Shown: positions 2,030 through 17,346, counted from the stretch's first letter. The stretch: 64,000 bases of DNA from an uncultured Alphaproteobacteria bacterium (GCA_963748525.1 CAVVJJ010000005.1:8026-72025); one strand, 5' to 3'. Made by a program: numbers and translations. The notes: generated by a model not told the origin, from the sequence alone.

Positions 2030-3981
2030 AGCCGCGCCCTCCAGCCTGCGTTTTCCGGCGCGGAATGGAGCGGGTGAATGTCGTCCGCACCGTCCGCATC
2101 GGTCTCAATCATGTTTTTCAACGGGTTGGCGCGGACGGTTGCGGCGGTTTCGCCCGGTGAACCGTCCGCTGGATCGCCGACCGTCCGCAGTTTTCGGCTT
2201 TCAAAGCCGTTGCCAATATTGGGTTTCACCGGATCGGCGGACGTCGCGGACGATGCGGACGGTCTAGCCCCTCGGGTTTCTGGCGCAACAGGTTGCCCGG
2301 TCGTGGTGATGCGGATCATCCGTGTCCGTGCCCGCCCTTCACGCTCGAAGCCGATCTCGATGCCGATCTTGCGCAGGAAGGTCGCCGCCCGGCGCAGGCG
2401 GCCCGCCAGCGCCCGAGGGCTATCGGGCCAGGTCTTCGACTTGGCGACACGCTCGCCCGCCATTTCGGCAAGGGCACCCAGAAGGTCCGAGGCGGTCCCC
2501 GTCCACTCCGTCCGCGCCTGCATCAAGGCCCGATAGTGGCGGCGATCGGATCGGCGTCGATCACGCCATCCACCGCCTCGTCACGGTTGCCGCAATAGGC
2601 CGACCAGAACGTGCCCGAGGGCCAAAACGCCGTTTCGCAGGCGGTCGCCCACAGGGCGAAGTCTGCCATGCGCGGCAGCTTGTCGAGCTTGGTGCCGGCA
2701 GATTCGGCAAGCCCTTCGCCACCGCATCGAGCAGCGCGCCCAGGAGGCGCGGGCGTTCGGCCTCAAACGCTGCCCATAATTCCTGCCTCGGGGCGACGGC
2801 GTTCTTCCGGGATTGGTTCCAGCGTCAGGAACAAGGCGCGATCGGCCAGATCGGGCCGGGTGACGATATCCTCGATGCCGTTCAGGATCATCGGGCGCTG
2901 CGGCGTCGAACAGCACTTCATCCTGATCGGAGTAAAGCTGGCGAACGGCGAAGCCGCCGCCCGTGGCGAGGCGGCAAAGCGTGTCCGAAATCCAGGCGGG
3001 AAGGCCCGACACATTGTCGAAGGCGAGCACATGGCCGTTGCTTGCGGCGATGAACAGGTCGCGATCCTCGCGCGGCAAGGCCCGCAAGGGCGCGGTGTTG
3101 GGATCGAGCAGCGCCCGCAGGATCGCCGAGAAGGTCGATTTCGCCGAACCCTGCTCGCCCGACAAGACGATCACCGGATAGGGACCGCGATTGCGCAGAC
3201 AAGCCAAAGCCCAGGCGACCACCAGCACGAAATCGGCGTTGGTTTGCACATTGAGGAACGGGCGCAAGGCTTCGATCGAGCCGCCGCCTACCGGTATCGG
3301 CATCGCCTTCATGCCGGAAGCGCGCCGGAAACGAACGGGCGGATTGTCAACGATGCGCCAGCCGGTGGCGTCGATCTCGATCGCGCGCCATGCCTCGTCA
3401 CCGAGGTCGAGATAGAGCCGCCCGTCGAGCCCGCCGACGCGGATATGCACCTGCCGTTCGGGCGCATCGAAGTGCGCCTTGGCCTCGATGACGTTCAGCG
3501 CCGATTGCAGCGCTTCCGAACTCGGCGCGCCACCCGTCTCCTCAAAGAAGCGCCGCGCCAGCCAGCGACGGAAGCCCTTGGCGCGGATCGGCCAGGTTTC
3601 GCGATGGCCGTTGATGTCTAGGTCGGCATAGCCGCTGCCGTCTGGTGTATGGAACAAGGCGACGGATTGGGCGAGGTCGATCAGGATGTCGGCTTGCGTC
3701 GGCCCGCGCCCGCCTTGATCGCCGTTCTCCTCGGCGATGGCGTCATCGAGCGCCGTCACGCGGGCTCCGGCTTTCTTGAGTTGCGAACGCAGCGCCTCGA
3801 AGGCGGCGCGGTTGTCCTGCTTCAGCGCCGCAAGCGCTCCCAGGGCTTCCGGCATGAACGGCGCGCCGGGATCGGTAGCAGTCTGCTCGACGAGCCCGGC
3901 CAGCGGATCGGGAATAGCCTCGGCAGCCTCGATGGCATCGAGGATCAGGCTTTCCGGTTCAAGAATGTTGTCGGCGCTCAT
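2026..3981 (-). pseudogene. Primase-associated P-loop ATPase (SF3-helicase-like), interrupted by at least four frameshifts
   Basis: The protein starts MSADNILEPESL and carries Walker A VLSGEQGSAKST. The continuation pieces QRPMILNGIEDIVTRPDLADRALFLTLEPIPEERRRPEA, ELWAAFEAERPRLLGALLDAVAKGL, AESAGTKLDKLPRMADFALWATACETAFWPSGTFWSAYCGNRDEAVDGVIDADPIAA and LMQARTEWTGTASDLLGALAEMAG lie in different minus frames. Confidence 0.75.
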
Positions 3982-4874
3982 TGCTCGCCCTCCGTGAATG
4001 CGGGGTTGCGGGCCTTGAGCAGATCGTTGAAATCCATGCCGCTTGGCGCGCGGGCGATCCGAACGTTTCGCCCTTCGCGTTGCCATCGCCGGGCGCAGTG
4101 CTGCGCCGCCGCTTCGCCGGGTTCGTCGCCATCGGCGAGCACGATCACCTCGACGATGGCGCGCGGCAGATCGAGCGAGCGAAGGCCCGAGGTTGAAAGC
4201 GCCGCCCATGCCGGTTTGCCGGTCGCCTGCATCGCGGCAAGGCAGGTCTCGATCCCTTCGCCGACCATCAGCACGTCGCCGGTTTCGCCCAGGCGAACCA
4301 CGCCGCCACGACAAGGCCCAAGCATCATCTTCGTCGGATCGACAGGCGCTTTTCCGTGACCGTCGCGGGCAAGGAAAGTACGATGAATGGCGATCGGCGA
4401 ACCGGTTTCGCCGTGCAGCACCAGCGACACCATGGCAGGCCAGACGCCGCCTGAAGCGTGCTTCAGGCCGGGATGGAAACGCAAACTTGGCAGCAGCGAG
4501 GGCGCGATCCCGCGCGATCGGAGATAGGTTTCGCCGAGCGAGCCCGCGATGTCTTGCGAGGCCCGCCAGATCGCAAGCGCCGCCTCGGTGCGCGCCTTGG
4601 CATCAGGATCGGGTTCGCGCTCAAGGTTCTTCCGGTGCTTTCGGACAATGCTGCCAGGGCGTTTGCCGGTCGCGTCCCACAAGCCGCGCTCTGAAAGGGC
4701 GGCGATCACGTCACGCTGGTCGCAACCGGCGTGGCAGCGCACCAGCACTTTGCCGTTCGGTCCCGCGCTGATCGCAAGGCTCGGGCTTAAATCGTCATGG
4801 GCCGGGCATCGCGCCATCCATGTTGCGCCCGCCCGGTGCCCGCCAAGGGCTTTGGCGATGGTTTCAGCGGTCAT
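3978..4874 (-). CDS. Toprim-domain primase-like protein with an N-terminal zinc-binding motif
   Basis: Reads MTAETIAKALGG...ARCPAHDDLSPSLAIS...VRCHAGCDQRDVIAALSERGLW, then the Toprim segment VLMVGEGIETCLAAMQ...VIVLADGDEPGEAAAQ. An ATGA overlap links it to the next gene. Confidence 0.8.
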   Translation of the reverse strand: MTAETIAKALGGHRAGATWMARCPAHDDLSPSLAISAGPNGKVLVRCHAGCDQRDVIAALSERGLWDATGKRPGSIVRKHRKNLEREPDPDAKARTEAALAIWRASQDIAGSLGETYLRSRGIAPSLLPSLRFHPGLKHASGGVWPAMVSLVLHGETGSPIAIHRTFLARDGHGKAPVDPTKMMLGPCRGGVVRLGETGDVLMVGEGIETCLAAMQATGKPAWAALSTSGLRSLDLPRAIVEVIVLADGDEPGEAAAQHCARRWQREGRNVRIARAPSGMDFNDLLKARNPAFTEGEQ

Positions 4875-5118
4875 GGCGCACCTCGCCATCGTTCGGTTCG
4901 ATCGGCGCGGCGCAATCAATCGCGGCGGCGAACAATTCGGCGCGGCGCCATTCGGCGAGGACGCCGAAGAAGCCGGTAACGGAATGAAGGATTTGCCGCG
5001 CGTCCTCATCGTTGAGGTCGCGGCCCATGCGCGGTTGCCAGATTTCGCGGGTGCGAGCGATCTGCCGACCCATTTCGTTGTCGTTTGCAGCGTCGAGACG
5101 TTTCATCGAAGACCTCAC
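4864..5118 (-). CDS. Hypothetical small protein of the element
   Basis: 84-aa ORF, co-oriented, overlapping the primase start by 11 nt. Confidence 0.5.
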   Translation of the reverse strand: MRSSMKRLDAANDNEMGRQIARTREIWQPRMGRDLNDEDARQILHSVTGFFGVLAEWRRAELFAAAIDCAAPIEPNDGEVRHDR

Positions 5119-5747: not shown

Positions 5748-6521
5748 TCACGCGCCATCGGTGAGAAGGCGCTGCAACGGCACCGTGCGGTGCAAAAGCC
5801 CAAGCCTTTCGAGGCGAATGCGCATCGCGATCGGCGAGACGAGAAACTTTTCGGCGAACGGCTTGGCAAAACTGTCCAAAGCCTGATCGTCGGTTTCCGT
5901 GAACTCGGCACCGGGAATGCGGCATTCGAAGCGGGCGATTTCGACGAAGGGATGCTCGATCGGCGTCGCGGGTTGAAGCACCCGCCGCTTGCGGTCGGGG
6001 AAAGCCTTATCCCAGGCGGCGAACACCAGTTTGCGCGGCATCAGCACGCAGGAGGCATACAGATCGGCTTGAAACTCGATCCGCTCCTTCGCCTGGCTAG
6101 TTCGGCAAACGACGCTCGGCGCGGCATTCGGTTCGAGAAGCGATGTCTGCGCCGGGTCTTTGCCGAACAATCCGCGATGAAGCCGCCAATGGCCGATTTC
6201 ATGCGCCGTCGTGTAACGATAGCGCCCTTCCTTGGCTGGATTGACGTCGGGATCGAGGCTTTCGTCGATCACGATCCGCTTCTGGTCGAAGAAGATCGCG
6301 CCGAGGATATCGGGATCGAAGCCGATGCCGGAACGCGGCACGCCGAAAAGCCGGTGCGTGTCGTCGAACTCGATGCCGATCTTGAGGTGCTTTTCGATGA
6401 TGTCGTCGATCGGGATCGGCGCTTCGATCGGCATCCCGCGTTCCCGCGCGTAGTCGGCAAGGAGCGCTTGCGCGTCCTTCTCGATCGCCTCATCGGACAT
6501 ATAGGCAACTTTCAATCCCAT
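5748..6521 (-). CDS. ImmA/IrrE-family zinc metallopeptidase
   Basis: HEXXH motif TTAHEIGHWRLH. It sits directly downstream of an XRE repressor gene, which is the ImmR/ImmA arrangement. Confidence 0.8.
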   Translation of the reverse strand: MGLKVAYMSDEAIEKDAQALLADYARERGMPIEAPIPIDDIIEKHLKIGIEFDDTHRLFGVPRSGIGFDPDILGAIFFDQKRIVIDESLDPDVNPAKEGRYRYTTAHEIGHWRLHRGLFGKDPAQTSLLEPNAAPSVVCRTSQAKERIEFQADLYASCVLMPRKLVFAAWDKAFPDRKRRVLQPATPIEHPFVEIARFECRIPGAEFTETDDQALDSFAKPFAEKFLVSPIAMRIRLERLGLLHRTVPLQRLLTDGA

Positions 6522-6573: not shown

Positions 6574-6921
6574 TCACTTGTCCTTCGACTTCTGCGCCTC
6601 GCGGGCCAGCCGCGTGAGTTCATCCGCCGTCAGGCCCTTGGTTGTCCGCAGTAGCGCCGCGACCTCGACCGGATTGCGCTTGATGATGTCCGAAAGATCA
6701 GTGGCGACCTTGCCCGCCCGTGCCAGAAGCTCATCGACGTCGCAGCCGATCACCCCGGCAATCAACCGAACCTTGTCCTCGGCGGGCGGCGGAAACTCGT
6801 CGCGCTCGACCTTGGAAACATAGGTCGGGCTCACGCCGATCATTTTCGCCATTTCGCGCAAGCCGATCTCCTTTTCTTCACGCCGCGCCCGGATGAACGC
6901 GCCAAACTTCTCCCCTGACAT
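6574..6921 (-). CDS. XRE-family helix-turn-helix regulator (ImmR-like)
   Basis: Reads MSGEKFGAFIRARREEKEIGLREMAKMIGVSPTYVSKVERDE. ATG at 6921. Confidence 0.8.
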   Translation of the reverse strand: MSGEKFGAFIRARREEKEIGLREMAKMIGVSPTYVSKVERDEFPPPAEDKVRLIAGVIGCDVDELLARAGKVATDLSDIIKRNPVEVAALLRTTKGLTADELTRLAREAQKSKDK

Positions 6922-7548
6922 GCTGGTTTCTCCCGTTACCTGTTTATGAGGCACTCTACACTCAATTCGCTCGTCGCCGTCAACTGATATCTAAACACTC
7001 TTAAGCGAGGCGGTTATGCCGCAAGGCCAAACTCGCGAACATCTTCCAGAATGCGCCGGAAATCAGCGCTTGGCGCGAGGCACATGGTTCGATATCGAGT
7101 GACGAAGGGGAGCCACTCCGCCCTGGAGGCAGTTTTTCCGGGCGACCTGTCACCGCCCCTCACCTCATGTTTTTCAGCGGGCGTCACAGGCTATGCCACG
7201 CGGTCGCTTGCCGTCCCGCCCCTCTGACGGTATTGGCGACGGTATTAGAGGGACGTTTCATGTTGCTGAGGCGTACGCCTGCTCGAACCCCGCGAACGGC
7301 CTATAAGTGACCGGCGGCAGAGGTCTATATCTCTATGCGGCGCCGCAAGGATGGCGCCTTTGGCGCTTCAATTGCCGCCGCAGGGGCGCGTCGTGGAATA
7401 GGTCCGACGGCGACCAGCCGTCTCTCGACTTCACATTCAGCAGTGCAATCCCCTGACCGAAGTCCTTGCAATGCCGTTGCGTTTCTTTTGCATCGCGAAA
7501 AGTAGCCGGAACGGGTCATCTGTGAGCCTCCCGCCTCTTATGCGTTTC

Positions 7549-7654: not shown

Positions 7655-9163
7655 CTATGAGAAGCAGATGAGAGCCTTCGGCGCGGTGTTACAGGCCCCG
7701 GCGAGCAGCGATTTTGCCTTTTCCTGGCTCCATACTCGCATCACTTGAAGCAACTTTGACACGCCGAGGATATTCATGGCGCGCTTCATGTTGTAGGACA
7801 GGACGTGGAGAGACATCTCTGTCCTGACATTGCCCAGCCTTTTCATCAGGAAGTGCGCCGAACCCATCCAGAACTTAAGGGTTCCGAACGGATGTTCCGC
7901 GGTGCTGCGCCGTTCGGTCATCGCGTCCGGCCGCCGGTCCAGCCGGTCTTGGGCGGCCTCCAGAACGGCTTCATGCTCCCAGCGCTTGATGCGGCGCTCC
8001 CTGCCTGTGGTGCATTTTCCTTTCAGCGGACAGGTTAAGCAGGCCGTCGCCCAGTAGCTCCGCAAGACTTTGCCGTCTTCTTCGTTGGTGTAACGATAGG
8101 TCAAGCGCTGGCCGGCGGGGCAAAGATAGACATCCTCGTCCGCTTTGTAGACGAAGTCCTGCTTGCCGAAACGCCCCTCGGCCTTAGACCCCGAGGTTGA
8201 AAATCTGGGCACATACGCCGTCGCGCCGGCTTGCCCGCAGGCAAGAATTTCCTTGCCGTCGTAGTAACCGCGATCGGCGAGGGCCTCGATGGCTTCGGCG
8301 CCAAGGGCCTCCTTGGCCTGCCCGGCCATGCTGGAGAGTTGGTGACGGTCATTGACAGCGTTGGTGACTTCGTGAGCGACGATGAGGTGATGCTCCGTCT
8401 CGACGGCGCATTGCACGTTGTAGCCGACGGTCCCCGTCGCCTTGCCTGTCCCTTGCATCGAGCGCGCGTCGGGATCGGTGAGCGAAATCTGTGTGTCCTT
8501 GGCGCTCGCAAGCTGCGCCTCGATCCCTTTCACGCGCTCGATTTCCTGCTTCAGCCTGTCGATTTTGCCCTTGAGCCGCGCGCGCTTGATTTCGGGCGTC
8601 GAGGGCTGGCGGTCGGCGGTTTCAAGCTCAGACAAATAGCGCTCGATGCTCGCCTCGATCTGCTCCAGCCGCTTGGCCGCCTTGGCTTGCGTGAAATTCC
8701 GGTCGCGCGAGTTGACTGCCTTGAACTTGCTTCCGTCGATGGCGACCGTTGTGGCCGTGAGCAGGCCTGCCCGCCCGCAGACCACGATGAACTCGCGACA
8801 GACTTTGCGGATGGCCGGGCCATTATCCTTGCGGAAATCGGCGATGGTCTTGAAGTCCGGCGCCAGGCAGCCCGTCAGCCACATCGCCTCGACGTTGCGC
8901 TGGCATTCCCGCTCAAGCCGGCGGCTGGACTGAACGCGGTTGAGGTATCCGTAGACGTAGAGCTTCAGCATCACCGCCGGATCGTAAGCGGGCCTTCCCA
9001 TCAGCTTCGGATGAACGCGCCAGAAGCCCAGCTGGCCGAGATCAAGCTGATCCACGAAGAAATCGACCACCCGAACAGGATTATCCTCGGCGACATAGTC
9101 TTCCAGCTGCGCCGGAAACATCGTTCCCTGAGTGCGATCCGCCCCGCTCACAAAGCTCGTCAT
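7655..9163 (-). CDS. IS1182-family DDE transposase
   Basis: Reads MTSFVSGADRTQGTMFPAQLEDYVAEDNPVRVVDFFVDQLDLGQLGF...; the Cys-rich CPAGQRL...CLTCPLKGKCT segment is typical of the family. Confidence 0.85.
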   Translation of the reverse strand: MTSFVSGADRTQGTMFPAQLEDYVAEDNPVRVVDFFVDQLDLGQLGFWRVHPKLMGRPAYDPAVMLKLYVYGYLNRVQSSRRLERECQRNVEAMWLTGCLAPDFKTIADFRKDNGPAIRKVCREFIVVCGRAGLLTATTVAIDGSKFKAVNSRDRNFTQAKAAKRLEQIEASIERYLSELETADRQPSTPEIKRARLKGKIDRLKQEIERVKGIEAQLASAKDTQISLTDPDARSMQGTGKATGTVGYNVQCAVETEHHLIVAHEVTNAVNDRHQLSSMAGQAKEALGAEAIEALADRGYYDGKEILACGQAGATAYVPRFSTSGSKAEGRFGKQDFVYKADEDVYLCPAGQRLTYRYTNEEDGKVLRSYWATACLTCPLKGKCTTGRERRIKRWEHEAVLEAAQDRLDRRPDAMTERRSTAEHPFGTLKFWMGSAHFLMKRLGNVRTEMSLHVLSYNMKRAMNILGVSKLLQVMRVWSQEKAKSLLAGACNTAPKALICFS

Positions 9164-9222
9164 CAGTTCTCCTCGCCACTTTGGCGAGGAGAAGTTTAGG
9201 CGCAATCGCTATTCTGAAGCTG

Positions 9223-9525: not shown

Positions 9526-10207
9526 ATGCCAAAGCTGCCTTCTGCTTCAGCCAAGCCTGCTTTGTACCGTCTGGTCGAGCTGTTTCACGAAGCCTTTCCC
9601 AGCCGCCGCTGGTGTCCGTTTTTTCAAGATCTGGCGAAATTTGCGAAACGCAAACTGTCTGTTGCTGATCGGGACATTATTATCAAGGCGTCCCTAAGAC
9701 TTCTTGCAAGAAAGCCCTATGTGGAAACGAAGGAAGAATACCGCGAGCGCCTAAAATTGGATGGTAAAGACAGAACAGAACTGGTCAAACGCCTCAAGAG
9801 TATCCGCTCATCCTCCAAAACCATTGCTAGAGATATAGAGTTTATCGTAAGCTGTGACGCTTGGATCATCGAAAAAATATTCATTTCTTCTTGATTTTTA
9901 CAAGCCGTTTGATGCTTCTGCTTCTATCGCGCCGGTAGATCAAGTGATAGCGCGTATTCAAAGTGCATCGAAAAGCGCCGTCGCTCAGTGCCCGAAGAAG
10001 GGGAATCAGGGCCCGAAGCCTGATACGGCAATCAGATTTTTTATCGCAGAACTCTCGCAAATTTTCGAGAATAAGATAACCTCTGGTTACAATGAAAAAG
10101 AGGTGCGGCGCGTTTCTTCCTTTATTGATTTCGTGAAAGCCATTCTCCTTGCGCTTCCCGAGAATGCGATAATGGGGTGGCAGGGCATTTTCTCGACGGA
10201 GGTATAG
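9526..10207 (+). pseudogene. Hypothetical gene in an AT-rich block, split into two ORFs (9526..9894 and 9854..10207) at an A6 tract
   Basis: Removing one A from the A6 run at 9872..9877 joins ...CDAWIIEK to YSFLLDFYKPFDASAS... in one frame of about 227 codons. Confidence 0.5.
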
Positions 10208-10351: not shown

Positions 10352-10588
10352 TTATTCCGTACCTGGCCTGCACATGGCCGAAAATTCTGTACGGAGTAAC
10401 CCATGAAAGCTGCTGGCCTCCGCATTCCGGAAAAGGCGCGTCGTGGCGACAATGGCAAAGCCTGCCTCGATCAGCACCTCAAACCGGGTGGAGGCGAGCG
10501 GCAGCGGCTGCCGGCCGCCGCGGACAAACGCGCCGGCGACGAAGGCGTGTAACGGATCAATCATGCTCTGCGGCGTCATCCGGGGCAC
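10352..10588 (-). pseudogene. 5' remnant of a VIT-domain (vault inter-alpha-trypsin / vWA-type) gene
   Basis: MTPQSMIDPLHAFVAGAFVRGGRQPLPLASTRFEVLIEAGFAIVATTRLFRNAE resembles a VIT-domain N-terminus. The similarity is lost after about residue 56, where base composition changes. Confidence 0.4.
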
Positions 10589-10931
10589 GGCTCCCCTCCC
10601 TCAGCAAATCGTTCAACAGTTCGGCGACGCGTGTGGCGAGCGGTTCGACGCGAACGCCGCTGCCAATCAGCGCCGGATCGACGACAAGCGTGACGCCCGG
10701 CGCGACGGGAAAGGGCGCGCCTTCCCCGGTTTCCAGGAGCAACTTGATCGCCGCCGGCGGAAACCCAAGCTCCCGCAAAGCGTTGTACCGGCGGATGGCC
10801 GCGACATGATCGTCGCCGTAGGTCGCGCGAGCGCGGCCCCCACGTGGCGAGGGAATGAACCCTTCGGCGATCAAATAGCGGATTTGACGCTCCGGTACGC
10901 CAGTGACAGCGGTAAGCTCGTGAATGTTCAC
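10557..10931 (-). CDS. MerR-family HTH transcriptional regulator
   Basis: VNIHELTAVTGVPERQIRYLIAEGFIP...AAIRRYNALRELGFPPAAIKLLL. The GTG start at 10931 is preceded by GAAAGGAGG. Confidence 0.7.
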   Translation of the reverse strand: MNIHELTAVTGVPERQIRYLIAEGFIPSPRGGRARATYGDDHVAAIRRYNALRELGFPPAAIKLLLETGEGAPFPVAPGVTLVVDPALIGSGVRVEPLATRVAELLNDLLREGSRAPDDAAEHD

Positions 10932-10940
10932 GCCGCCTCC

Positions 10941-10963
10941 TTTCGACAATATTCTTGTCGAAA
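10941..10963. promoter_or_regulatory. Palindromic candidate operator TTTCGACAA-N5-TTGTCGAAA upstream of the MerR gene
   Basis: Read directly. A further half-site, tttgtcgaagg, lies at about 10994..11004. Confidence 0.45.
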
Positions 10964-11293
10964 CGGATGGGGCGGTCAAGTCTTTTACAAATCATTTGTC
11001 GAAGGGAGTGAAGCGCGGGAGCTTGACGGCTTCTTGGCGGAAAAGAAAGGCTGCTGAAAACACAACGGCGTGCCGGGATCGACATTTCGCGTTCCCCCCG
11101 CCCCCGATGCCGCCTAAGCCGAAATGGAGCGTTGGCACACATTTCTCGCCTTACGTCGCAATTTGAGGGAAGCAGAACGCGAGTTCGCCACAGCATGAAC
11201 CGGGTTTCGGCACGGCTCAATACGCCGTCAGCGAAGGGGAAGCCGGGGGCGCACAGCTTATGGCAGGCTTAACTGAAGAAAGGAATGCCGCAA

Positions 11294-11390
11294 ATCACGC
11301 TAGATGTCGGCTGGAAGCCGGTCAAGACTTTCGAGGAAGGCCTCGCGGAGACTGTGACCGGGTGTATTCACAACCGCGCTTGGGCATTCT
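11294..11390 (+). pseudogene. rfbB: 3'-terminal remnant of dTDP-glucose 4,6-dehydratase
   Basis: ITLDVGWKPVKTFEEGLAETVTGCIHNRAW matches the conserved RfbB C-terminus (LGWKP..TFE.G..KTV.WY..N..W). There is no upstream continuation in any frame. Confidence 0.5.
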
Positions 11391-11589
11391 CGAACGCGGT
11401 TACCAAGGCCGAACGGCTAGGCCATGCGGGTGCGGACCTTGAAAACGCGACAGTTTATGACCCGGATCAAAGCGGCCGATGACGGAATGTGGGAACAGGC
11501 TATGAAAGCGAGGCAACAGCCACGAATGCAGATTTGACGAATGCAACTGGTTTGTCACCGTCACGCTTTCGGGTTGTGGGAGCAGGGCT

Positions 11590-11931
11590 ATGAGGTTTCT
11601 TTCTAGCCTGTTGGCGTTTGTATTAACGATTTTTCTTTCGAATGCTTTATATACGTACTTCGCAATGAACTTCACAATAACGATGCGAGACTTACTGCTG
11701 GGTGTTCAGAGCATTCGCGATCAGTTGGGCCACCTCGTTTCATCTGAAAAGTTCACCGTTTGGGTAGATATTTTTTTGGAGCCGAACCTAATTGTTTTCG
11801 TGGGCGTCAATATTTTGACCTGGTTTTTTCTCGCCATCGTTTTCTCAGCCTTTTGGAGAGGACCGCAACGTCCATCCGCTGCCGTGGCATCCGCAGCCGC
11901 AATGAGGCTGCCATTCGGGCGTTGGGGCTGA
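11590..11931 (+). CDS. Small membrane protein with two hydrophobic segments
   Basis: 113 aa. Reads FLSSLLAFVLTIFLSNALYTYF and NLIVFVGVNILTWFFLAIVFSAFW. AT-rich; 48 bp upstream of the next gene. Confidence 0.5.
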   Translation: MRFLSSLLAFVLTIFLSNALYTYFAMNFTITMRDLLLGVQSIRDQLGHLVSSEKFTVWVDIFLEPNLIVFVGVNILTWFFLAIVFSAFWRGPQRPSAAVASAAAMRLPFGRWG

Positions 11932-11979
11932 AGGGATGAAGCTTCCCAAAGAGTTTCCGCTCACGTCCCGAGCAACAAA

Positions 11980-12525
11980 GTGAATGGCGGTGACAAGGGG
12001 CATACTGTACAGCAACTCGATGTACGCGCACTTCTGGATGTATGGTATCGTAGGGCGCGCGAGGCGCAATTCGCCCACTATCGAGCCGCTAAGCGTTTCT
12101 CACAGCTCAACGATGGTCTTGGCATTCTGGCTGCCCTTATGACGGCCGGGCTCGGCCTTCAGCTTGTGCAGGTTCTTAATGTCGGGTCGTGGCTGAATTT
12201 GCGCGGCGACACTTTGGATTTAGCATTGGGCGTTTCGGGGCTCATAGCCGCCGCTTTAACAACGATTCAGACTATCATGCGCTATTCGGAAGCTGCTGAA
12301 AGACATATCAGAGCCGCTGCGCTTTACAGCTCGATTCGAAGGGAAATCGAAGTGGCGAAGACTCTTGCCCCGGACACTATAGAAAGCGATCGCAACGTCA
12401 TAGAATCGATCCGGAGCCGTCTCGATGAAGCCGCCGCCGAGACGCCGGATGTTCCGGCCGCGGTTTTTCGCCGGACCGTCGAGGAACTCGAACGCAAGAG
12501 CGGGCCAGGACCGCATCTTATATGA
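11980..12525 (+). CDS. SLATT-like two-transmembrane protein (predicted membrane effector)
   Basis: Layout: N-terminal helix WYRRAREAQFAHYRAAKRF, TM1 GLGILAALMTAGLGLQLVQVL, TM2 LALGVSGLIAAALTTIQTIM, then RYSEAAERHIRAAALYSSIRREIE. GTG start. Confidence 0.5.
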   Translation: MNGGDKGHTVQQLDVRALLDVWYRRAREAQFAHYRAAKRFSQLNDGLGILAALMTAGLGLQLVQVLNVGSWLNLRGDTLDLALGVSGLIAAALTTIQTIMRYSEAAERHIRAAALYSSIRREIEVAKTLAPDTIESDRNVIESIRSRLDEAAAETPDVPAAVFRRTVEELERKSGPGPHLI

Positions 12526-12832
12526 GAACCGTTCGCGCGAGGAGGTGGTCTGCTACCTCCCGGTTAAGGCATTGCTAGTATTAGGTGAAATGAGGCCTTG
12601 CGTTTTGCCGATTCCGGGGCTATGTAACTGGCTTCCAATTTGTCGGTCTGGTGTGGTTTGGCCACATACCGGGACAGCGATCCCAAGAAAAAAACAGTTC
12701 ATCTTGAGTAGCGCCCCTTGACGGATAAGCACAAATCGGAACCTAGTTCGGCGGAGGTGCTGCGTCGAACGTTTAGCTTCAGACAACGGGAAAAAAGATG
12801 CGCGGACCGATCATACTTCCAACTTCCCTTTT

Positions 12833-14275
12833 TTAAAGTAGGGCGCTGCCGAACTCGCTTTTCAAAAGCTTGGAATAGCCCATTCGCTCGTGGAGCTTTT
12901 GAAAAGCGACGCCAGCTTTGTCTTCGGCAGAACTATCGTAAGCGTTTCTGCACTTCATAATACCAGCCTCTATCTCCTCTTCCGATTGCGCAAAAGCGAT
13001 AAGGAATGCGCCGAGCGTGTCTTGAACCGCGCGGAAGTTTTCGTGTGCGCTGTCAAGAAAATCGAGGTTGAGTTCGCACCGCAATCTTTCGCACTCCGCC
13101 AGAAACTGCGACGTTTCGGTTTGCATCGCGCCGTCGATCAGGTAATTGAGCAGATTGAACTTCAAGTACCAGACCGTGGTATCGTCACCGTCGGGACTCC
13201 CTTGAGACATTCTCAGATAAGTGCGAATAACGGAGATGGCGTTGTCTCTTTCGCCGATCATGTACAGGATGCTCGATTTCCAGAATGCCGCCTCGCTGCC
13301 TGTCTTGCCCTTATCTGCTATCCAATCTTCCATGTACTGAAGAGCGATACGATTGAGATCGTTTGCCTCTCGAATCGACGCAAGAAGCAGCATAAGCTGG
13401 AACGCAGGCTCAATGCCGTTCTGCTGCCGCATGCATTCAATATCGTTTACAATCGTCTTCAGACTGATATCTCTTATCGAACAAATCGAAAATATATTAG
13501 CCAACTCAGTGATCCGTCCATGAAATTCTCTACAGTGTCGAGTGAGATCGGGGTCCGTAAATTCCCTATCGGCAAGCTTATCGAGCGCAGCGGTCCGCGC
13601 CGCGCGACGAAGTTTCTTTTCAAACATCCACTCTTTATTGACCATAAGCCTCAGATTTTCGCTTTGCACCTCCAGCGCTTCTATACTGTCGCCCATGCTT
13701 TGCATCAGCTCCCTAGCGTGGCGGCTCAGAGTGTTGGACGGTCTGTAGATGAAGTCATGCGTTTTGCAACTCCACGCATCGTGCAGGATCGTTTTAACCT
13801 GGACTTCGCATAAAAAGTTTCTTAGATCTAAGCGATTGCATCTTAAAATAAGATGATGAGCATGGTATCCTAATTTATCACGATAAACTTCATCGACAAC
13901 TGAGAAATCGTAGGCTTCGACAGATCGCTTTATCTCGTCGACAACTCTACTAATTTGAGATCTATAATAAACAAGCACACGACACGCAACAATATCGTGA
14001 ACATGGGCTGCTCCCTTATCTTTCCACGCAGCCGGATCTCTTTCTTTAAATTTTACAATTTTAGCTGTTAAGCGGTTTATATCCTTTATTTCTCCGGACT
14101 GACCCGGATAGTCCCTGCGGGAGTAAGCAAAAAAAACTGCTTCTGTACTCCATCGAAGCGGAACAATACGTTCTTGAAGATAGGCTTTTACCAGTTTCAC
14201 GAGGCGTAAATAATGCGCTTGATTGTCAAATAGAAATTTCTGCGTTTCCGCAAGCACTCTATCAAATTGAGTCAT
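12833..14275 (-). CDS. RelA/SpoT-fold (RSH synthetase-like) nucleotidyltransferase fused to a helical C-terminal domain of about 270 aa
   Basis: Motifs HDIVACRVLVYY (DxxGxR-like), GYHAHHLIL (GYxSxH-like) and CEVQVKTILHDAWSCKTHDFIYRP (EIQIRT..WA..H..YK-like). There is no HD hydrolase domain. The C-terminal sequence is TPR-like and helical. AT-rich. Confidence 0.7.
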   Translation of the reverse strand: MTQFDRVLAETQKFLFDNQAHYLRLVKLVKAYLQERIVPLRWSTEAVFFAYSRRDYPGQSGEIKDINRLTAKIVKFKERDPAAWKDKGAAHVHDIVACRVLVYYRSQISRVVDEIKRSVEAYDFSVVDEVYRDKLGYHAHHLILRCNRLDLRNFLCEVQVKTILHDAWSCKTHDFIYRPSNTLSRHARELMQSMGDSIEALEVQSENLRLMVNKEWMFEKKLRRAARTAALDKLADREFTDPDLTRHCREFHGRITELANIFSICSIRDISLKTIVNDIECMRQQNGIEPAFQLMLLLASIREANDLNRIALQYMEDWIADKGKTGSEAAFWKSSILYMIGERDNAISVIRTYLRMSQGSPDGDDTTVWYLKFNLLNYLIDGAMQTETSQFLAECERLRCELNLDFLDSAHENFRAVQDTLGAFLIAFAQSEEEIEAGIMKCRNAYDSSAEDKAGVAFQKLHERMGYSKLLKSEFGSALL

Positions 14276-14421
14276 ATATCTTTTTTACATCGTTCGGCGA
14301 TGCAATCCCCCAGTCGAAATTAGTACACAAAGCCAGAAGCGAGCCTTCGGATCAGAGTTGCCGAGGGTGGCTTTTTAAGCATCTTGATATGCCATGGGAT
14401 GCAACCCAATAGCAATCAAAC

Positions 14422-14979
14422 TTGAGATTGCGTGAGCGCGACATTTTTTTGTTACGTCCGAGCGCACCCTTTCCCACTCCCGCCGCCCTTGCAGAGAGAG
14501 GCTATAGAATGTATGCCGCAAATCCAGCCTTCCAGCACACCCAGGTCTATGGAAGGCGTTATCGGTTTGAAGACATCCTGGCCGCGTTCTTCGAGCAGGT
14601 GATTTCGCGCGCCCGGAGGTCTGCGTCTTTACCACGCCGGCTTGATTGGAAGGCCGGTAAAATTTGCTGGCCTTAGTCCGGACGCGGCGCTCGCGCAACG
14701 GCGCTACGAGGCGGCGTTCAAGCGCTTCGGCTTTGATGAAATCCATCATGTTATGGAGCCCATAGCCGCCGCCTATTTTTACGCACATAAACAGACGCAG
14801 GCCTCCACCGTTTTGGTTGGCGATTTCGGCGAAGGCCGGGATTCCGGCGGACGCCATCGACCGGGTTTTCCTCACCGGGCGGCACATCCTTCGTACCGGC
14901 CATCAGAAGAATTTTCGCACAGCGTTTCGGCGCGGAGAAAGTAAACTCGGGCGATAAGTCCGAGCCGCTTTATAAGCGC
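14422..14979 (+). pseudogene. Hsp70-like (YegD-type actin-fold ATPase) gene remnant with frameshifts and a large internal deletion
   Basis: The pieces RYRFEDILAAFFEQV, LIGRPVKFAGLSPDAALAQRRYEAAFKRFGFDEIHHVMEPIAAAYFY, VLVGDFG, ADAIDRVFLTG and GTSFVPAIRRIFAQRFGAEKV lie in different frames. Confidence 0.6.
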
Positions 14980-17346
14980 GTGTTTCAGGCCCGCGAGCGG
15001 GTGTTGGGCCCCGAGAATCCGAACACGCTTCAAATCCTCACCAATCTGGCGAATATCTATCGGGAGCAGGGCCGCTACGCGGACGCAGAGCCGCTATACA
15101 AGCGCGCTCTTCAGGGCTTTGAGAGGGTAAAGGGCCCCGAGGACCCCCTAACTCTGGGCAGCCTTAACAATCTCGCGTTGCTCTATCGTGAACAGGGCCG
15201 CTACGCGGATGCCGAGCCGCTTTATAAACGTGCGATCGAGGCCAGCGAGCGCGTGCTTGGAAAGGAGCATCCCGACACGCTCGGGAGCCGCAGCAACCTG
15301 GCTGTGCTCTATCAAGACCAGGGCCGCTATGCGGAGGCAGAGCCCCTTTATAAGCGCGTGCTCGAGGTCCAGCAGCGGGTGCTCGGCAAGGCGCATCCCT
15401 ATACGCTTGGCAGTCTCTACAATCTGGCATGGCTTGATTTCCAACTGGGCGACTGGGCAGGCGCCGCCCGATTGTGGCGGCGTAGCGCTGCCGCGATCGC
15501 TGAGCGGGAGCAGCGCAGCGCGCAGGATTCCGGGCAAGCCCTGACCGGCGAAAAGAAAAGCGAGGCGGATCGCGCGAGCAATCACTTTCTGGGTCTCATA
15601 AAGGCGGTGAGTCGCCTCGCGAGCGAAGGCCAGGCGCCCGGCGCACCCGCGGCGCGCGAGACGTTCGAGATAGCGCAATGGGCTGCCGGCTCCGAGGCGG
15701 CAAAATCGCTGGCGCAAATGGCGGCGCGTGGCGCCTCGCGGGATAAGGCGCTCGCTGTGCTGGCGCGCGAGCGCCAGGATCTCGTCGCGGAATGGCAGAA
15801 GCGCGACGGCTTGCGCAACGAATGGCTCGCCAAGACGCCGGATAAACGCAACGCCCAAGGCGAGGCCGAGAACACGGCCCGGCTTACCTCGATCGAGGCG
15901 CGCATCGGGGAGATTGACGGCATCCTGAAGGACAAATTCCCCGATTACGCCTCCCTCGCCAGTCCCGCGCCAATCAGCGTCGAGGATGCGCAGGCTCAGC
16001 TTCTTCCCAACGAGGCGCTGGTGCTTTTCCTCGATACACGGGAATGGAAGCCCACGCCGGAGGAGACCTTTATCTGGGTCGTGACCAAGACCGATATGCG
16101 CTGGGAGCGTTCCGATTTGGGCACGAAGGCCCTCTCCCGCGAAGTGCAGGCGCTGCGCTGCGGCCTCGACGACGCGGCGTGGGACGACCAGCCCTGTGCG
16201 GAACTTGCCGGCCAAAATTACACATACAAAGACCGGAATGACGGCAAGGCGCCGCCCTTCGATTTGGCCCGCGCCCATAAGCTCTACGAAGCGCTGTTTG
16301 GCCAGGTGGAGGATTTAATCAAGGGTAAAAGCCTCCTTATCGTGCCATCCGGACCGCTCACGCAATTGCCGTTCCAGGTGCTGTTGACGGCGGCGTCTCA
16401 AAGCGGCGATCACCGTTCCGCCCCTTGGCTCATCCGCGAGCATGCGCTCACCGTGCTGCCAGCCGTTTCCTCGCTGAAGGCGCTGCGGCGCGTCGCGCGG
16501 CCCAGCGCGGCGACGCGCGCGATGATTGGCTTCGGCAACCCGCTCCTCGACGGCGACCAGAGCGACAAGCAGCTCGGCGCCTATTTCAAGAAGCGCGCCC
16601 AGCTCGCCCGCGACAAACAGCGTTGCCCCGAGACGCCTTGGCAGCGCTTCGCCGCTCTCGTTGGAATAAGACGCGGGGTGGCGCAGGTTCAAACGCGCGG
16701 CGAACTCGCCGACGCCGATTTCCTGCGTATGCAGGCGCCGCTGCCGGAGACCGCTGATGAACTTTGCGCCGTCGCCCGCGACGTGAACGCCGATCTGGCC
16801 GAAATCCGGCTCGGCGCCCGCGCCACCGAGCGCGAAGTGAAGCGCCTGAGCGAGACGGGCGAACTCGCTCGCTATCGCATCGTTCATTTCGCCACCCATG
16901 GCGCGCTGGCGGGGCAAGTTACGGGCAATGCCGAGCCGGGCCTGCTGTTGACGCCCCCCGAAAGCCCGAGCGAGGGTGACGATGGCTATCTCACCGCGTC
17001 CGAAATCGCCGGCCTGAAGCTCGACGCCGACTGGGTGATCCTGTCGGCCTGCAACACGGCCGCCGGCGGCGCAAAAGGCGCCGAGGCGCTATCGGGCCTT
17101 GCGCGCGCCTTCATCTATGCGCAGGCGCGCGCGCTCCTTGTCTCGCATTGGGAGGTGAATTCGGACGCCACCGTCAAGCTCATAACCGGCGCCATACGCC
17201 GGCTTGCGGCGGACAAGGCCATGGGCCGCGCGGAGGCGATGCGCCAATCCATGCTCGCGCTTATCGACGGCGGCGCGCACGAAGAGACGCATCCCGCCTT
17301 TTGGGCGCCGTTCGTGCTCGTCGGCGAGGGTGGAGCCGGGAGATAG
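14980..17346 (+). CDS. TPR-repeat + CHAT-domain caspase-like protease, apparently 5'-truncated
   Basis: Repeated units read LG.EHPDTL.S..NLA.LY..QGRYA.AEPLYKRAL. The CHAT His/Cys dyad context is RIVHFATHG ... DWVILSACNTAAGG. The reading frame is open upstream into the Hsp70-like remnant, and the only start is a GTG without an SD. Confidence 0.75.
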   Translation: MFQARERVLGPENPNTLQILTNLANIYREQGRYADAEPLYKRALQGFERVKGPEDPLTLGSLNNLALLYREQGRYADAEPLYKRAIEASERVLGKEHPDTLGSRSNLAVLYQDQGRYAEAEPLYKRVLEVQQRVLGKAHPYTLGSLYNLAWLDFQLGDWAGAARLWRRSAAAIAEREQRSAQDSGQALTGEKKSEADRASNHFLGLIKAVSRLASEGQAPGAPAARETFEIAQWAAGSEAAKSLAQMAARGASRDKALAVLARERQDLVAEWQKRDGLRNEWLAKTPDKRNAQGEAENTARLTSIEARIGEIDGILKDKFPDYASLASPAPISVEDAQAQLLPNEALVLFLDTREWKPTPEETFIWVVTKTDMRWERSDLGTKALSREVQALRCGLDDAAWDDQPCAELAGQNYTYKDRNDGKAPPFDLARAHKLYEALFGQVEDLIKGKSLLIVPSGPLTQLPFQVLLTAASQSGDHRSAPWLIREHALTVLPAVSSLKALRRVARPSAATRAMIGFGNPLLDGDQSDKQLGAYFKKRAQLARDKQRCPETPWQRFAALVGIRRGVAQVQTRGELADADFLRMQAPLPETADELCAVARDVNADLAEIRLGARATEREVKRLSETGELARYRIVHFATHGALAGQVTGNAEPGLLLTPPESPSEGDDGYLTASEIAGLKLDADWVILSACNTAAGGAKGAEALSGLARAFIYAQARALLVSHWEVNSDATVKLITGAIRRLAADKAMGRAEAMRQSMLALIDGGAHEETHPAFWAPFVLVGEGGAGR

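Follow-up and report, generated by a model that had tools for sequence, protein, structure and literature searches.

The window analysed here, a stretch of 64,000 nucleotides from an uncultured Alphaproteobacteria bacterium (GCA_963748525.1, CAVVJJ010000005.1:8026-72025), contains a 2.9-kb block at about 11548-14450, hereafter the islet, that is shared with other loci and carries three intact genes between an rfbB remnant on one side and a YegD/Hsp70 remnant on the other. Two of these genes lie on the plus strand, namely the gene of a 113-aa protein with two transmembrane (TM) segments (the 2TM gene, 11590..11931; recognized by its open reading frame (ORF), hydrophobicity, orthologues, and ratio of nonsynonymous to synonymous substitution rates, dN/dS) and, after a gap of 48 bp, the gene of a 181-aa SLATT_4 protein (11980..12525; NCBIfam, PADLOC, TM scan, and dN/dS). 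The third gene, on the minus strand, encodes a 480-aa RelA/SpoT homologue (RSH; 12833-14275, ORF) and converges on the other two. An earlier note, made from the sequence alone, had pointed out the three intact ORFs and their convergence; all of them are present at the positions it gave, although the spacer between the SLATT and RSH stop codons (12526..12832, no strand) measures 307 bp instead of 308 bp. The AT-rich character described in that note is also evident, since GC content amounts to 0.49 at 11555-14450 compared with 0.62 in the whole window, and GC at third codon positions (GC3) is 0.50-0.56 in the three islet genes versus 0.66-0.77 in adjacent genes.

The N-terminal part of the RSH protein (aa 1-205; 13661..14275, minus strand) is a small-alarmone-synthetase (SAS) domain of the RelA/SpoT SYNTH type. 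The protein passes the Pfam RelA_SpoT model (PF04607, 38.5 bits versus a cutoff of 27, aa 63-179), in agreement with the RelA/SpoT fold read by the earlier note, and shows a partial NCBIfam match of YjbM type. RelA_SpoT is its sole Pfam match, with no HD hydrolase, TGS, or ACT domain, and a hydrophobicity scan gives zero TM segments. Residues R53, K64, D94, Y137, H141, E157, and Q159 are invariant in the 76-member family alignment; this set comprises the ATP-binding and catalytic residues of RSH synthetases and aligns with the RelQ/RelP motifs. Moreover, the family profile compared with the PDB matches RelQ/RelP at E~1e-21 and CapRel (7ztb, 9erv) at E 2e-7, while the best Foldseek matches of the 480-aa model are RelQ (5dec) and 3l9d. 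In the AlphaFold model (pLDDT 78.8 overall), an alpha/beta synthetase core leads through a linker helix of 45 residues into stacked helical hairpins. Taken together, the Pfam, invariant-residue, profile, AlphaFold, and Foldseek results identify the protein, at the level of sequence and model, as a small alarmone synthetase of RelQ/RelP type fused to a TPR-like domain, and alarmone synthesis is predicted for it. The gene is under purifying selection across loci (dN/dS 0.13-0.21), with values of about 0.10 for the catalytic domain versus about 0.20 for the TPR part. The protein also weakly matches the PADLOC model PDC-S33, an RSH-containing candidate single-gene system (2.4e-5; relatives up to 2e-10).

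The C-terminal half of the enzyme (aa 206-480 plus the stop codon; 12833..13660, minus strand) is all-helical and TPR-like, with a long linker helix followed by about six helical hairpins (about 270 aa) that are modelled at pLDDT 85-95. Foldseek aligns this domain with the TPR domains of kinesin light chain, EMC2, and LGN, and the family profile resembles consensus TPR proteins (6e-10), whereas no invariant polar residue is found in this half in the 76-member alignment. The predicted structure thus fits the helical, TPR-like tail lacking an enzyme motif that the earlier note had described. Since no polar residue is invariant, the domain is probably a regulatory or sensor domain and not an enzyme. 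Adaptive evolution of the TPR part in an arms race was considered and rejected, since its dN/dS of about 0.2, although around twice that of the catalytic part, still indicates purifying selection.

The 181-aa protein passes the NCBIfam SLATT_4 model (NF033632, 87.7 bits versus a cutoff of 55, aa 19-171), so the SLATT assignment made from the sequence alone is upheld. It also resembles the PADLOC models of CBASS-type "2TM effectors" (6e-10), with which its layout agrees, and its TM segments start at about residues 47 and 78 in a hydrophobicity scan. It is a predicted membrane-perturbing effector. Its gene has a dN/dS of 0.14-0.20, and only nine close clusters are found among 5.8 billion. The 113-aa protein has no family match in Pfam, NCBIfam, or PADLOC; it consists of two hydrophobic TM segments and a conserved C-terminal R-x-P-F/L-G-R-W-G tail, and has orthologues with 60-64% identity at loci L002, L011, L083, and L084. 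Since its ORF is under purifying selection (dN/dS 0.24-0.45), it is a genuine gene, and the two-TM protein proposed by the earlier note 48 bp upstream of the SLATT gene is maintained by selection. Within the clade of close relatives, the distance from the 2TM gene to the SLATT gene downstream is 34-48 bp throughout, which makes co-transcription of the two probable. All three islet genes are under purifying selection at synonymous divergences (dS) of about 0.5-1.3.

These genes form a constant arrangement in their close clade. Every RSH protein at least 69% identical to that of the window, with enough 3' sequence, faces a convergent SLATT gene, and the 2TM gene lies beyond it wherever the sequence reaches; this applies to the window, the 192-kb contig P0001, L001 (SLATT end only), L002, L011/L084, L083, and the P0004 contig. 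Likewise, every SLATT protein at least 79% identical, with flanks, faces an RSH-size or RelA_SpoT gene, as seen on the P0012 contig (identical to the P0004 contig), for P0016 on L011, on the P0014 contig (where a 109-aa gene precedes the SLATT gene and, across a gap of 312 bp, a gene longer than 404 aa converges on it), and at L083 and L084. The survey of homologues that the earlier note had proposed thus finds the three genes together in every close relative with enough flanking sequence. The clade comprises seven lineages in at least five unrelated genomic contexts (MerR/rfbB remnant, DUF1428/transglutaminase, surE, PIN-MazE, and PIN/patatin), and the islet is a rare block that moves between soil alphaproteobacteria. 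The only close-clade locus without both units is L085, with a truncated RSH gene and no membrane genes. L011 and L084 represent the same locus in long-read assemblies (99.6% identical) with frameshifts at different places, for which reasons these frameshifts are probably sequencing errors and not decay.

Some observations on individual loci concern the same genes. The islet of L002 is flanked on one side by a degenerate copy of the surE 5' part with a frameshift and on the other by surE in intact form (flanks at 6725-7273 and 10933-11697), an arrangement that points either to an insertion that duplicated the end of its target gene or to a scar left by recombination. The 28.7-kb P0004 contig (JGI sample 3300075153, gene table only) carries a frameshifted RSH gene of the clade (144 + 325 aa), followed by a 511-aa RelA_SpoT gene located 93 bp from a convergent SLATT gene whose product is 85% identical to that of the window, and then by an 83-aa gene and a patatin gene; the second RSH gene may be an RSH-for-RSH replacement next to SLATT. 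At L010 (233-2224), a SLATT gene is followed 19 bp downstream by a co-directional gene for a 483-aa protein with a weak receiver-like (REC-like) N-terminus, no RSH similarity, and no known match in the rest of its sequence; a transposase of an insertion sequence (IS) adjoins the pair, which may be a different SLATT-partner system. Existing annotation obscures the islet: gene calls cut the enzyme to its C-terminal 288 aa or so (P0003, the call of the source, and P0006, the annotation of a metagenome-assembled genome (MAG) by NCBI), a part without any Pfam match, and in at least one deposited MAG (L002, 7434-10257) the SLATT and 2TM ORFs are not called as genes. The DNA behind P0003 and P0006 encodes an intact ORF of 477-480 aa in each. 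With the enzyme cut short and its neighbours uncalled, annotation-based surveys miss the module.

The convergent spacer is itself conserved. Depending on the lineage, it is 307 to 566 nt long owing to insertions on the SLATT side, and between the window and L001 it is 92-100% identical, above the coding regions. A core of about 66 nt (12640..12705, plus strand; multi-lineage alignment) is almost invariant in five lineages (represented, besides the window, by L001, L002, L011, L083, and L084), at a dS of about 1 in the flanking genes, with synonymous sites near saturation. This single-copy core follows the pattern TTGTCGGTCTGGTGTGG..loop..CCACATACCGGGACAGCG.TCC..A-rich..CAGTT.A.CTT and forms an imperfect hairpin with a variable loop, in which three G-U pairs form only on the plus (SLATT-sense) strand; its distance to the RSH stop codon is roughly constant (121-159 nt). 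A known RNA or terminator was considered for the spacer and rejected, since it matches no Rfam family, its core folds with modest stability (z -1.3 to -2), and no canonical terminator is present, the A-tract being on the wrong side for both strands with no adjacent U-tract in either direction. Covariation cannot be assessed because the stems are invariant. The core could be the overlap of two 3' untranslated regions, or a protein-binding site coupling both units.

The edges of the islet are sharp. Among loci, homology stops 15-45 bp before the 2TM gene, where a short conserved leader (11548..11589, plus strand; block-end alignments and all-vs-all blastn) forms the left edge, and about 180 bp before the RSH gene, where a conserved stretch of about 175 bp (14276..14450, minus strand; alignments), presumably the promoter and leader of the RSH gene, forms the right edge; compared with the closest relative, L001, homology on the right extends to 14511. 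On the left, homology of the window to other loci begins at 11548, while L002 and L011 have about 170 bp further upstream in common, so the copy in the window may have lost the native promoter region of the 2TM gene. The block was found to contain neither an integrase nor a transposase, and its ends show no inverted repeats. The only direct repeat bracketing the islet is 12 nt long (ATGCCGCAAATC, at 11285-11296 and 14513-14524, the right copy marking the end of the L001 homology); chance alone accounts for roughly such a length in 4 kb, so the repeat is no evidence of a target-site duplication. A phage origin was rejected, since a scan of viral contigs gave no relative, a tblastn search of phages gave one weak match of the RSH domain and nothing else, and a BFVD fold search gave generic RSH and TPR folds and nothing more specific.

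The dead-gene flanks proposed by the earlier note are both real by homology: 11285-11482 resembles the C-terminus of dTDP-glucose 4,6-dehydratase (E 3e-5), and 14642-14941 a YegD-type Hsp70 chaperone (NCBIfam PRK11678, 2.8e-9). About 17 kb around the islet consist of mobile-element debris with Toprim/DUF7146, ImmA-like peptidase, IS5-type transposase, MerR, and TPR-CHAT genes, after which housekeeping genes follow. Upstream of the islet, all on the minus strand, lie three hallmarks of mobile elements, namely a DUF7146+Toprim protein (3978-5009), an ImmA/IrrE-like M78 peptidase (5748-6521), and an IS5-family DDE transposase (7655-9205). Between this transposase and MerR there is a second patch of low GC (9526-10207; GC about 0.46, GC3 0.48-0.49), with two ORFs of 122 and 117 aa that overlap at their ends and have no family match. 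The MerR-family regulator (10557-10979, minus strand), directly upstream of the rfbB remnant, weakly matches the PADLOC model "mad1" (2e-6). On the other side, a TPR+CHAT protein of 788 aa (14980-17346, plus strand; CHAT 7.8e-55) starts with GTG within its TPR array and may therefore be N-terminally truncated; the TPR+CHAT architecture is itself associated with conflict systems.

Beyond the close clade, the enzyme belongs to a wide family. A word-indexed search of 5.8 billion clusters gave nine relatives of the RSH protein, and an exhaustive HMMER scan of 1.84 billion representatives gave 2981 matches at E<1e-3 and at least 136 at E<1e-30, counted as clusters at 50% identity; the strong matches are mostly 460-500 aa long and align end to end with the RSH protein. 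The search was saturated, since repeating it with the family alignment added only P0085 and P0167. A neighbourhood survey of 70 metagenome loci, 7 genome loci, and 3 Rhizobium plasmids found a SLATT-like ORF adjoining the enzyme in the close clade only, and no neighbour family recurred beyond chance among 108 neighbours at 47 non-redundant loci of the wider family. Thus, the wider SAS-TPR family, whose proteins are about 470-490 aa long, behaves as a single self-contained gene of patchy distribution. Its neighbours are often housekeeping genes (tRNA synthetases, PmbA/TldD, DnaK, QueA, GuaA, and RibF), and GC3 is clearly foreign in about a quarter of its genes (13 of 46). In another alphaproteobacterial MAG (L004, 6296-9440), a full-length homologue (32% identical; RelA_SpoT 45.9 bits) lies 26 bp downstream of the gene of an unannotated 557-aa protein, possibly an alternative membrane partner, which has TM helices near its C-terminus and matches nothing in Pfam, NCBIfam, or PADLOC. 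The conjugative plasmid of Rhizobium sp. B21/90 (L082, NZ_CP072166.1, 5617-7404) encodes a 595-aa member with an N-terminal extension, annotated as "hypothetical protein", between Ser/Thr kinase and diguanylate cyclase genes and with no SLATT gene nearby.

Both components can exist alone, and only the close clade joins them, given that L012 has an RSH gene without SLATT, the SLATT of L010 has a non-RSH partner, and SLATT genes of Caballeronia stand by themselves. The pairing of the RSH gene with a SLATT gene, for which the earlier note suggested the roles of sensor and nucleotide generator (or toxin) and of membrane effector, is constant in the close clade, whereas elsewhere the enzyme occurs alone and SLATT occurs as an orphan or with a non-RSH partner. 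As a model for the islet, a sensor and generator coupled to an effector remains plausible.

The reading tentatively favoured here, with a confidence slightly below even, is that the block is one composite conflict module of the abortive-infection type, made of two convergent transcription units, in which a TPR-braked synthetase signals to a SLATT membrane effector. In such a module, the TPR-like domain would hold the synthetase in check until a trigger, e.g., a phage or stress-derived protein docking onto the TPR surface, lifted this brake. The enzyme would then transfer pyrophosphate from ATP to a purine nucleotide, yielding alarmones of the (p)ppGpp or (p)ppApp type, and either this surge of nucleotides or the accompanying depletion of NTPs would switch on a membrane complex of the SLATT and 2TM proteins. 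In turn, the complex would depolarize or permeabilize the membrane, and growth would halt before the invader spreads. More speculatively, the conserved spacer element might couple the expression of both units. The composite module is favoured because of the constant co-occurrence in the clade, the relocation of the block as a unit with tight edges, and its common compositional signature, and also because of the effector role of SLATT proteins, the TPR brake of Tde-SAS from Treponema denticola, the presence of SLATT in some PANGU operons, and the possible RSH replacement on the P0004 contig. The purifying selection on all three genes, the invariance of the catalytic residues, and the strong conservation within the spacer also count in its favour. 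A more specific version, with a probability clearly below even, is that the TPR-gated synthetase makes (p)ppGpp, (p)ppApp, or a related nucleotide as the second messenger that opens a SLATT/2TM pore, the module having been assembled recently from stand-alone SAS-TPR and SLATT genes in a mobile 2.9-kb cassette, with units possibly cross-regulated through the spacer element.

Several points weigh against a composite module. The genes are convergent and hence not one operon, and the upstream stretch that other loci have ahead of the 2TM gene is lost in the window copy. The association is limited to one narrow clade and could therefore reflect a single ancestral juxtaposition. Of 48 non-redundant loci, the 47 that fall outside this clade, including the 50%-identical L012, have neither SLATT nor a recurrent partner, so the enzyme works without SLATT. 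The SLATT protein of L010 (57-60% identical) is paired with the non-RSH 483-aa protein and has no 2TM gene upstream, while SLATT genes of 33-36% identity stand alone among metabolic genes on three Caballeronia replicons, with no RSH or 2TM ORF within 4 kb. Moreover, we know of no nucleotide-binding site in SLATT_4, the arms-race signature sought in the TPR domain was not found (dN/dS about 0.2, purifying), and the viral-contig and PADLOC matches of the block stay at the domain level.

A serious rival, which is a real possibility despite falling well short of even probability, is that two independent modules lie back to back in one islet and are co-inherited because the islet moves as a whole. 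One would be a SAS-TPR protein that suffices by itself, like the rest of its family, and serves as a regulatory alarmone synthetase or as an autoinhibited toxin or defence protein of a single gene; the other would be a separate 2TM-SLATT membrane module with its own trigger. Both wider families are mostly stand-alone, the two units have convergent orientation and separate conserved upstream regions, the nearest outgroups are unlinked (L012 for RSH, L010 for SLATT), and defence genes often cluster without joint function. Nevertheless, loci with a single intact unit are absent from the close clade, apart from L085 with its truncated RSH gene. Moreover, the block lacks a mobility gene of its own and yet has reached at least five contexts with similarly tight edges, which selection on the whole unit would explain more easily. 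The conservation of the spacer element and the second RSH gene beside SLATT on the P0004 contig, where the first is frameshifted, also count against independent modules.

The remaining explanations are less likely than the composite module because of the RelQ/RelP affinity of the enzyme, on the one hand, and the mobility and conservation of the block, on the other. According to one of them, which is improbable, the RSH protein is a toxic SAS (toxSAS) of CapRel/FaRel2 type that pyrophosphorylates tRNA 3' ends, with the TPR domain as fused antitoxin or sensor and the SLATT pair outside the signalling. A single polypeptide with a C-terminal non-catalytic domain, as in the fused CapRel, would agree with this, as would the weak PDC-S33 match and the foreign GC3 of some family members (13/46). 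However, the catalytic domain is far nearer to RelQ/RelP than to CapRel by profile and by fold, representatives of PhRel2 and FpRel2 reach just 16-23 bits, the sole characterized SAS-TPR protein makes ppGpp (PMC10434055), and the neighbours of the family are mostly housekeeping genes. These neighbours, together with the position of the islet amid transposase, Toprim, ImmA, and pseudogene debris and the view of Tde-SAS as a stringent-response enzyme (PMC10434055), speak instead for the absence of any conflict system, in which case the SAS-TPR protein would be an accessory stringent-response enzyme and the membrane proteins either cargo with no relation to it or products of genes decaying among the remains of mobile elements. 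The latter explanation also has little probability, since purifying selection keeps the three genes intact in several lineages, the block has a foreign composition and changes place as one unit, and SLATT proteins are known from conflict systems only.

Returning to the composite module, its parts, namely the SAS, the regulatory TPR tail, and the SLATT effector, are each of a kind already known. What is new is a large SAS-TPR lineage distinct from DsRel, with hundreds of clusters brought to light, together with its capture in convergent orientation beside SLATT_4 and a private 2TM gene in one rare clade, and the conserved spacer element. The statement of the earlier note that no described system combines an RSH enzyme carrying such a tail with SLATT must therefore be narrowed: the SAS+TPR architecture has already been described (DsRel/Tde-SAS) and an RSH-SLATT link has been mentioned (PANGU), while the distinctness of the islet lineage stands.

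The closest known design is that of DsRel, represented by Tde-SAS, in which the SAS+TPR architecture has already been published; Tde-SAS prefers ppGpp as product over pppGpp and pGpp, also forms some ppApp, and has a TPR domain that represses its synthesis (PMC10434055). Both proteins begin with a RelP/RelQ-like synthetase domain that carries the Syn motifs, continue with a linker helix, and end in a TPR array, and hhalign aligns Tde-SAS collinearly with the islet RSH family (311 columns, 98% probability). On the profiles of the islet family, however, Tde-SAS reaches 63-73 bits, no better than PsRel, MixRel, BdRel, and gRel, whereas true members score 150-220 bits, and its BLASTP identity to the islet RSH protein is 21%. 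The C-terminal profile of the islet family matches neither Tde-SAS nor other named representatives, and its LHDAW/KTHD motifs are absent from the multi-family data set of PMC10434055. Furthermore, the islet tail has about 270 aa of helical repeats as opposed to about 180 aa with four TPRs in Tde-SAS, for which no SLATT neighbour is reported. The low profile scores, the lack of a C-terminal match, and the absence of the motifs from that data set mark the islet family, as far as its sequences tell, as a SAS-TPR lineage separate from DsRel with the same design logic. A literature search found no published name for this lineage, and none of the families DsRel, PsRel, MixRel, BdRel, gRel, ActRel2/3, CapRel, pRel, FpRel, FpRel2, PhRel2, and RelV (PMC10434055 supplement) coincides with it.

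Among toxSAS enzymes, CapRel(SJ46) likewise joins, in one polypeptide, an RSH synthetase fold at the N-terminus to a non-catalytic C-terminal domain that could, in principle, autoinhibit and sense a trigger. Nevertheless, the islet enzyme is distant from it (43 bits, E 2e-7), the C-terminal domain of CapRel is a pseudo-zinc-finger instead of a TPR-like tail, and CapRel modifies tRNA and has no membrane partner. On the islet profile, PhRel2 scores 20-23 bits and FpRel2 16 bits, and membership in a validated toxSAS subfamily was rejected on the distance of CapRel, PhRel2, and FpRel2, with FaRel/FaRel2 outside this comparison. No co-directional antitoxin gene adjoins the RSH gene, and the neighbours of the family are heterogeneous.

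As to published links between RSH and SLATT, a single sentence was found, in a preprint on PANGU, where the enzyme family is different and the sensor is a nucleoid-associated protein (NAP) (bioRxiv 10.64898/2026.04.06.716658). PANGU type I comprises a YejK-like NAP sensor and the GRel toxSAS Pag1B, an enzyme that produces an alarmone (pppGpp) and acts in abortive infection, and some of its operons carry a SLATT gene (bioRxiv 10.64898/2026.04.06.716658). The islet is similar in having an RSH-family synthetase with a C-terminal regulatory domain and a SLATT gene beside it. However, no NAP gene belongs to the conserved block, none of the three genes being NAP-like, and the islet enzyme is not a GRel, the gRel representative scoring 58-60 bits and thus standing no nearer than the other families do. 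Whereas PANGU has DMK as its regulatory domain, that of the islet is TPR-like, and the islet genes are convergent and accompanied by an extra 2TM gene, in contrast to the operonic PANGU genes. If the composite reading is true, the islet would be a second, independent link between an alarmone synthetase and a membrane effector after the SLATT-bearing PANGU operons, and both cases together would suggest a general alarmone-to-membrane route in bacterial immunity. If its second-messenger version is true, moreover, the islet would wire the chemistry of the stringent response directly to a suicide effector.

Finally, SLATT proteins are effectors of enzymes that produce nucleotides or nucleic acids, and the islet resembles CBASS-type 2TM, GAP1/DO-GTPase, and UG17/DRT10 (reverse transcriptase (RT) + SLATT_5) systems in that a two-TM SLATT protein is encoded, throughout the close clade though not among its more distant relatives, next to an enzyme predicted to have such a product; its resemblance to CBASS 2TM effectors also appears in PADLOC. 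No block gene matches a CD-NTase/SMODS cyclase in Pfam, NCBIfam, or PADLOC, and the partner enzyme is an RSH synthetase instead of a CD-NTase/SMODS, TIR, PNPase, or RT. In addition, unlike in those systems, the islet effector is a SLATT_4 protein accompanied by a small 2TM protein, and relatives of its lineage also occur as orphans. If the parts of the islet work together, the products of an RSH pyrophosphokinase would join the known signals of SLATT effectors.

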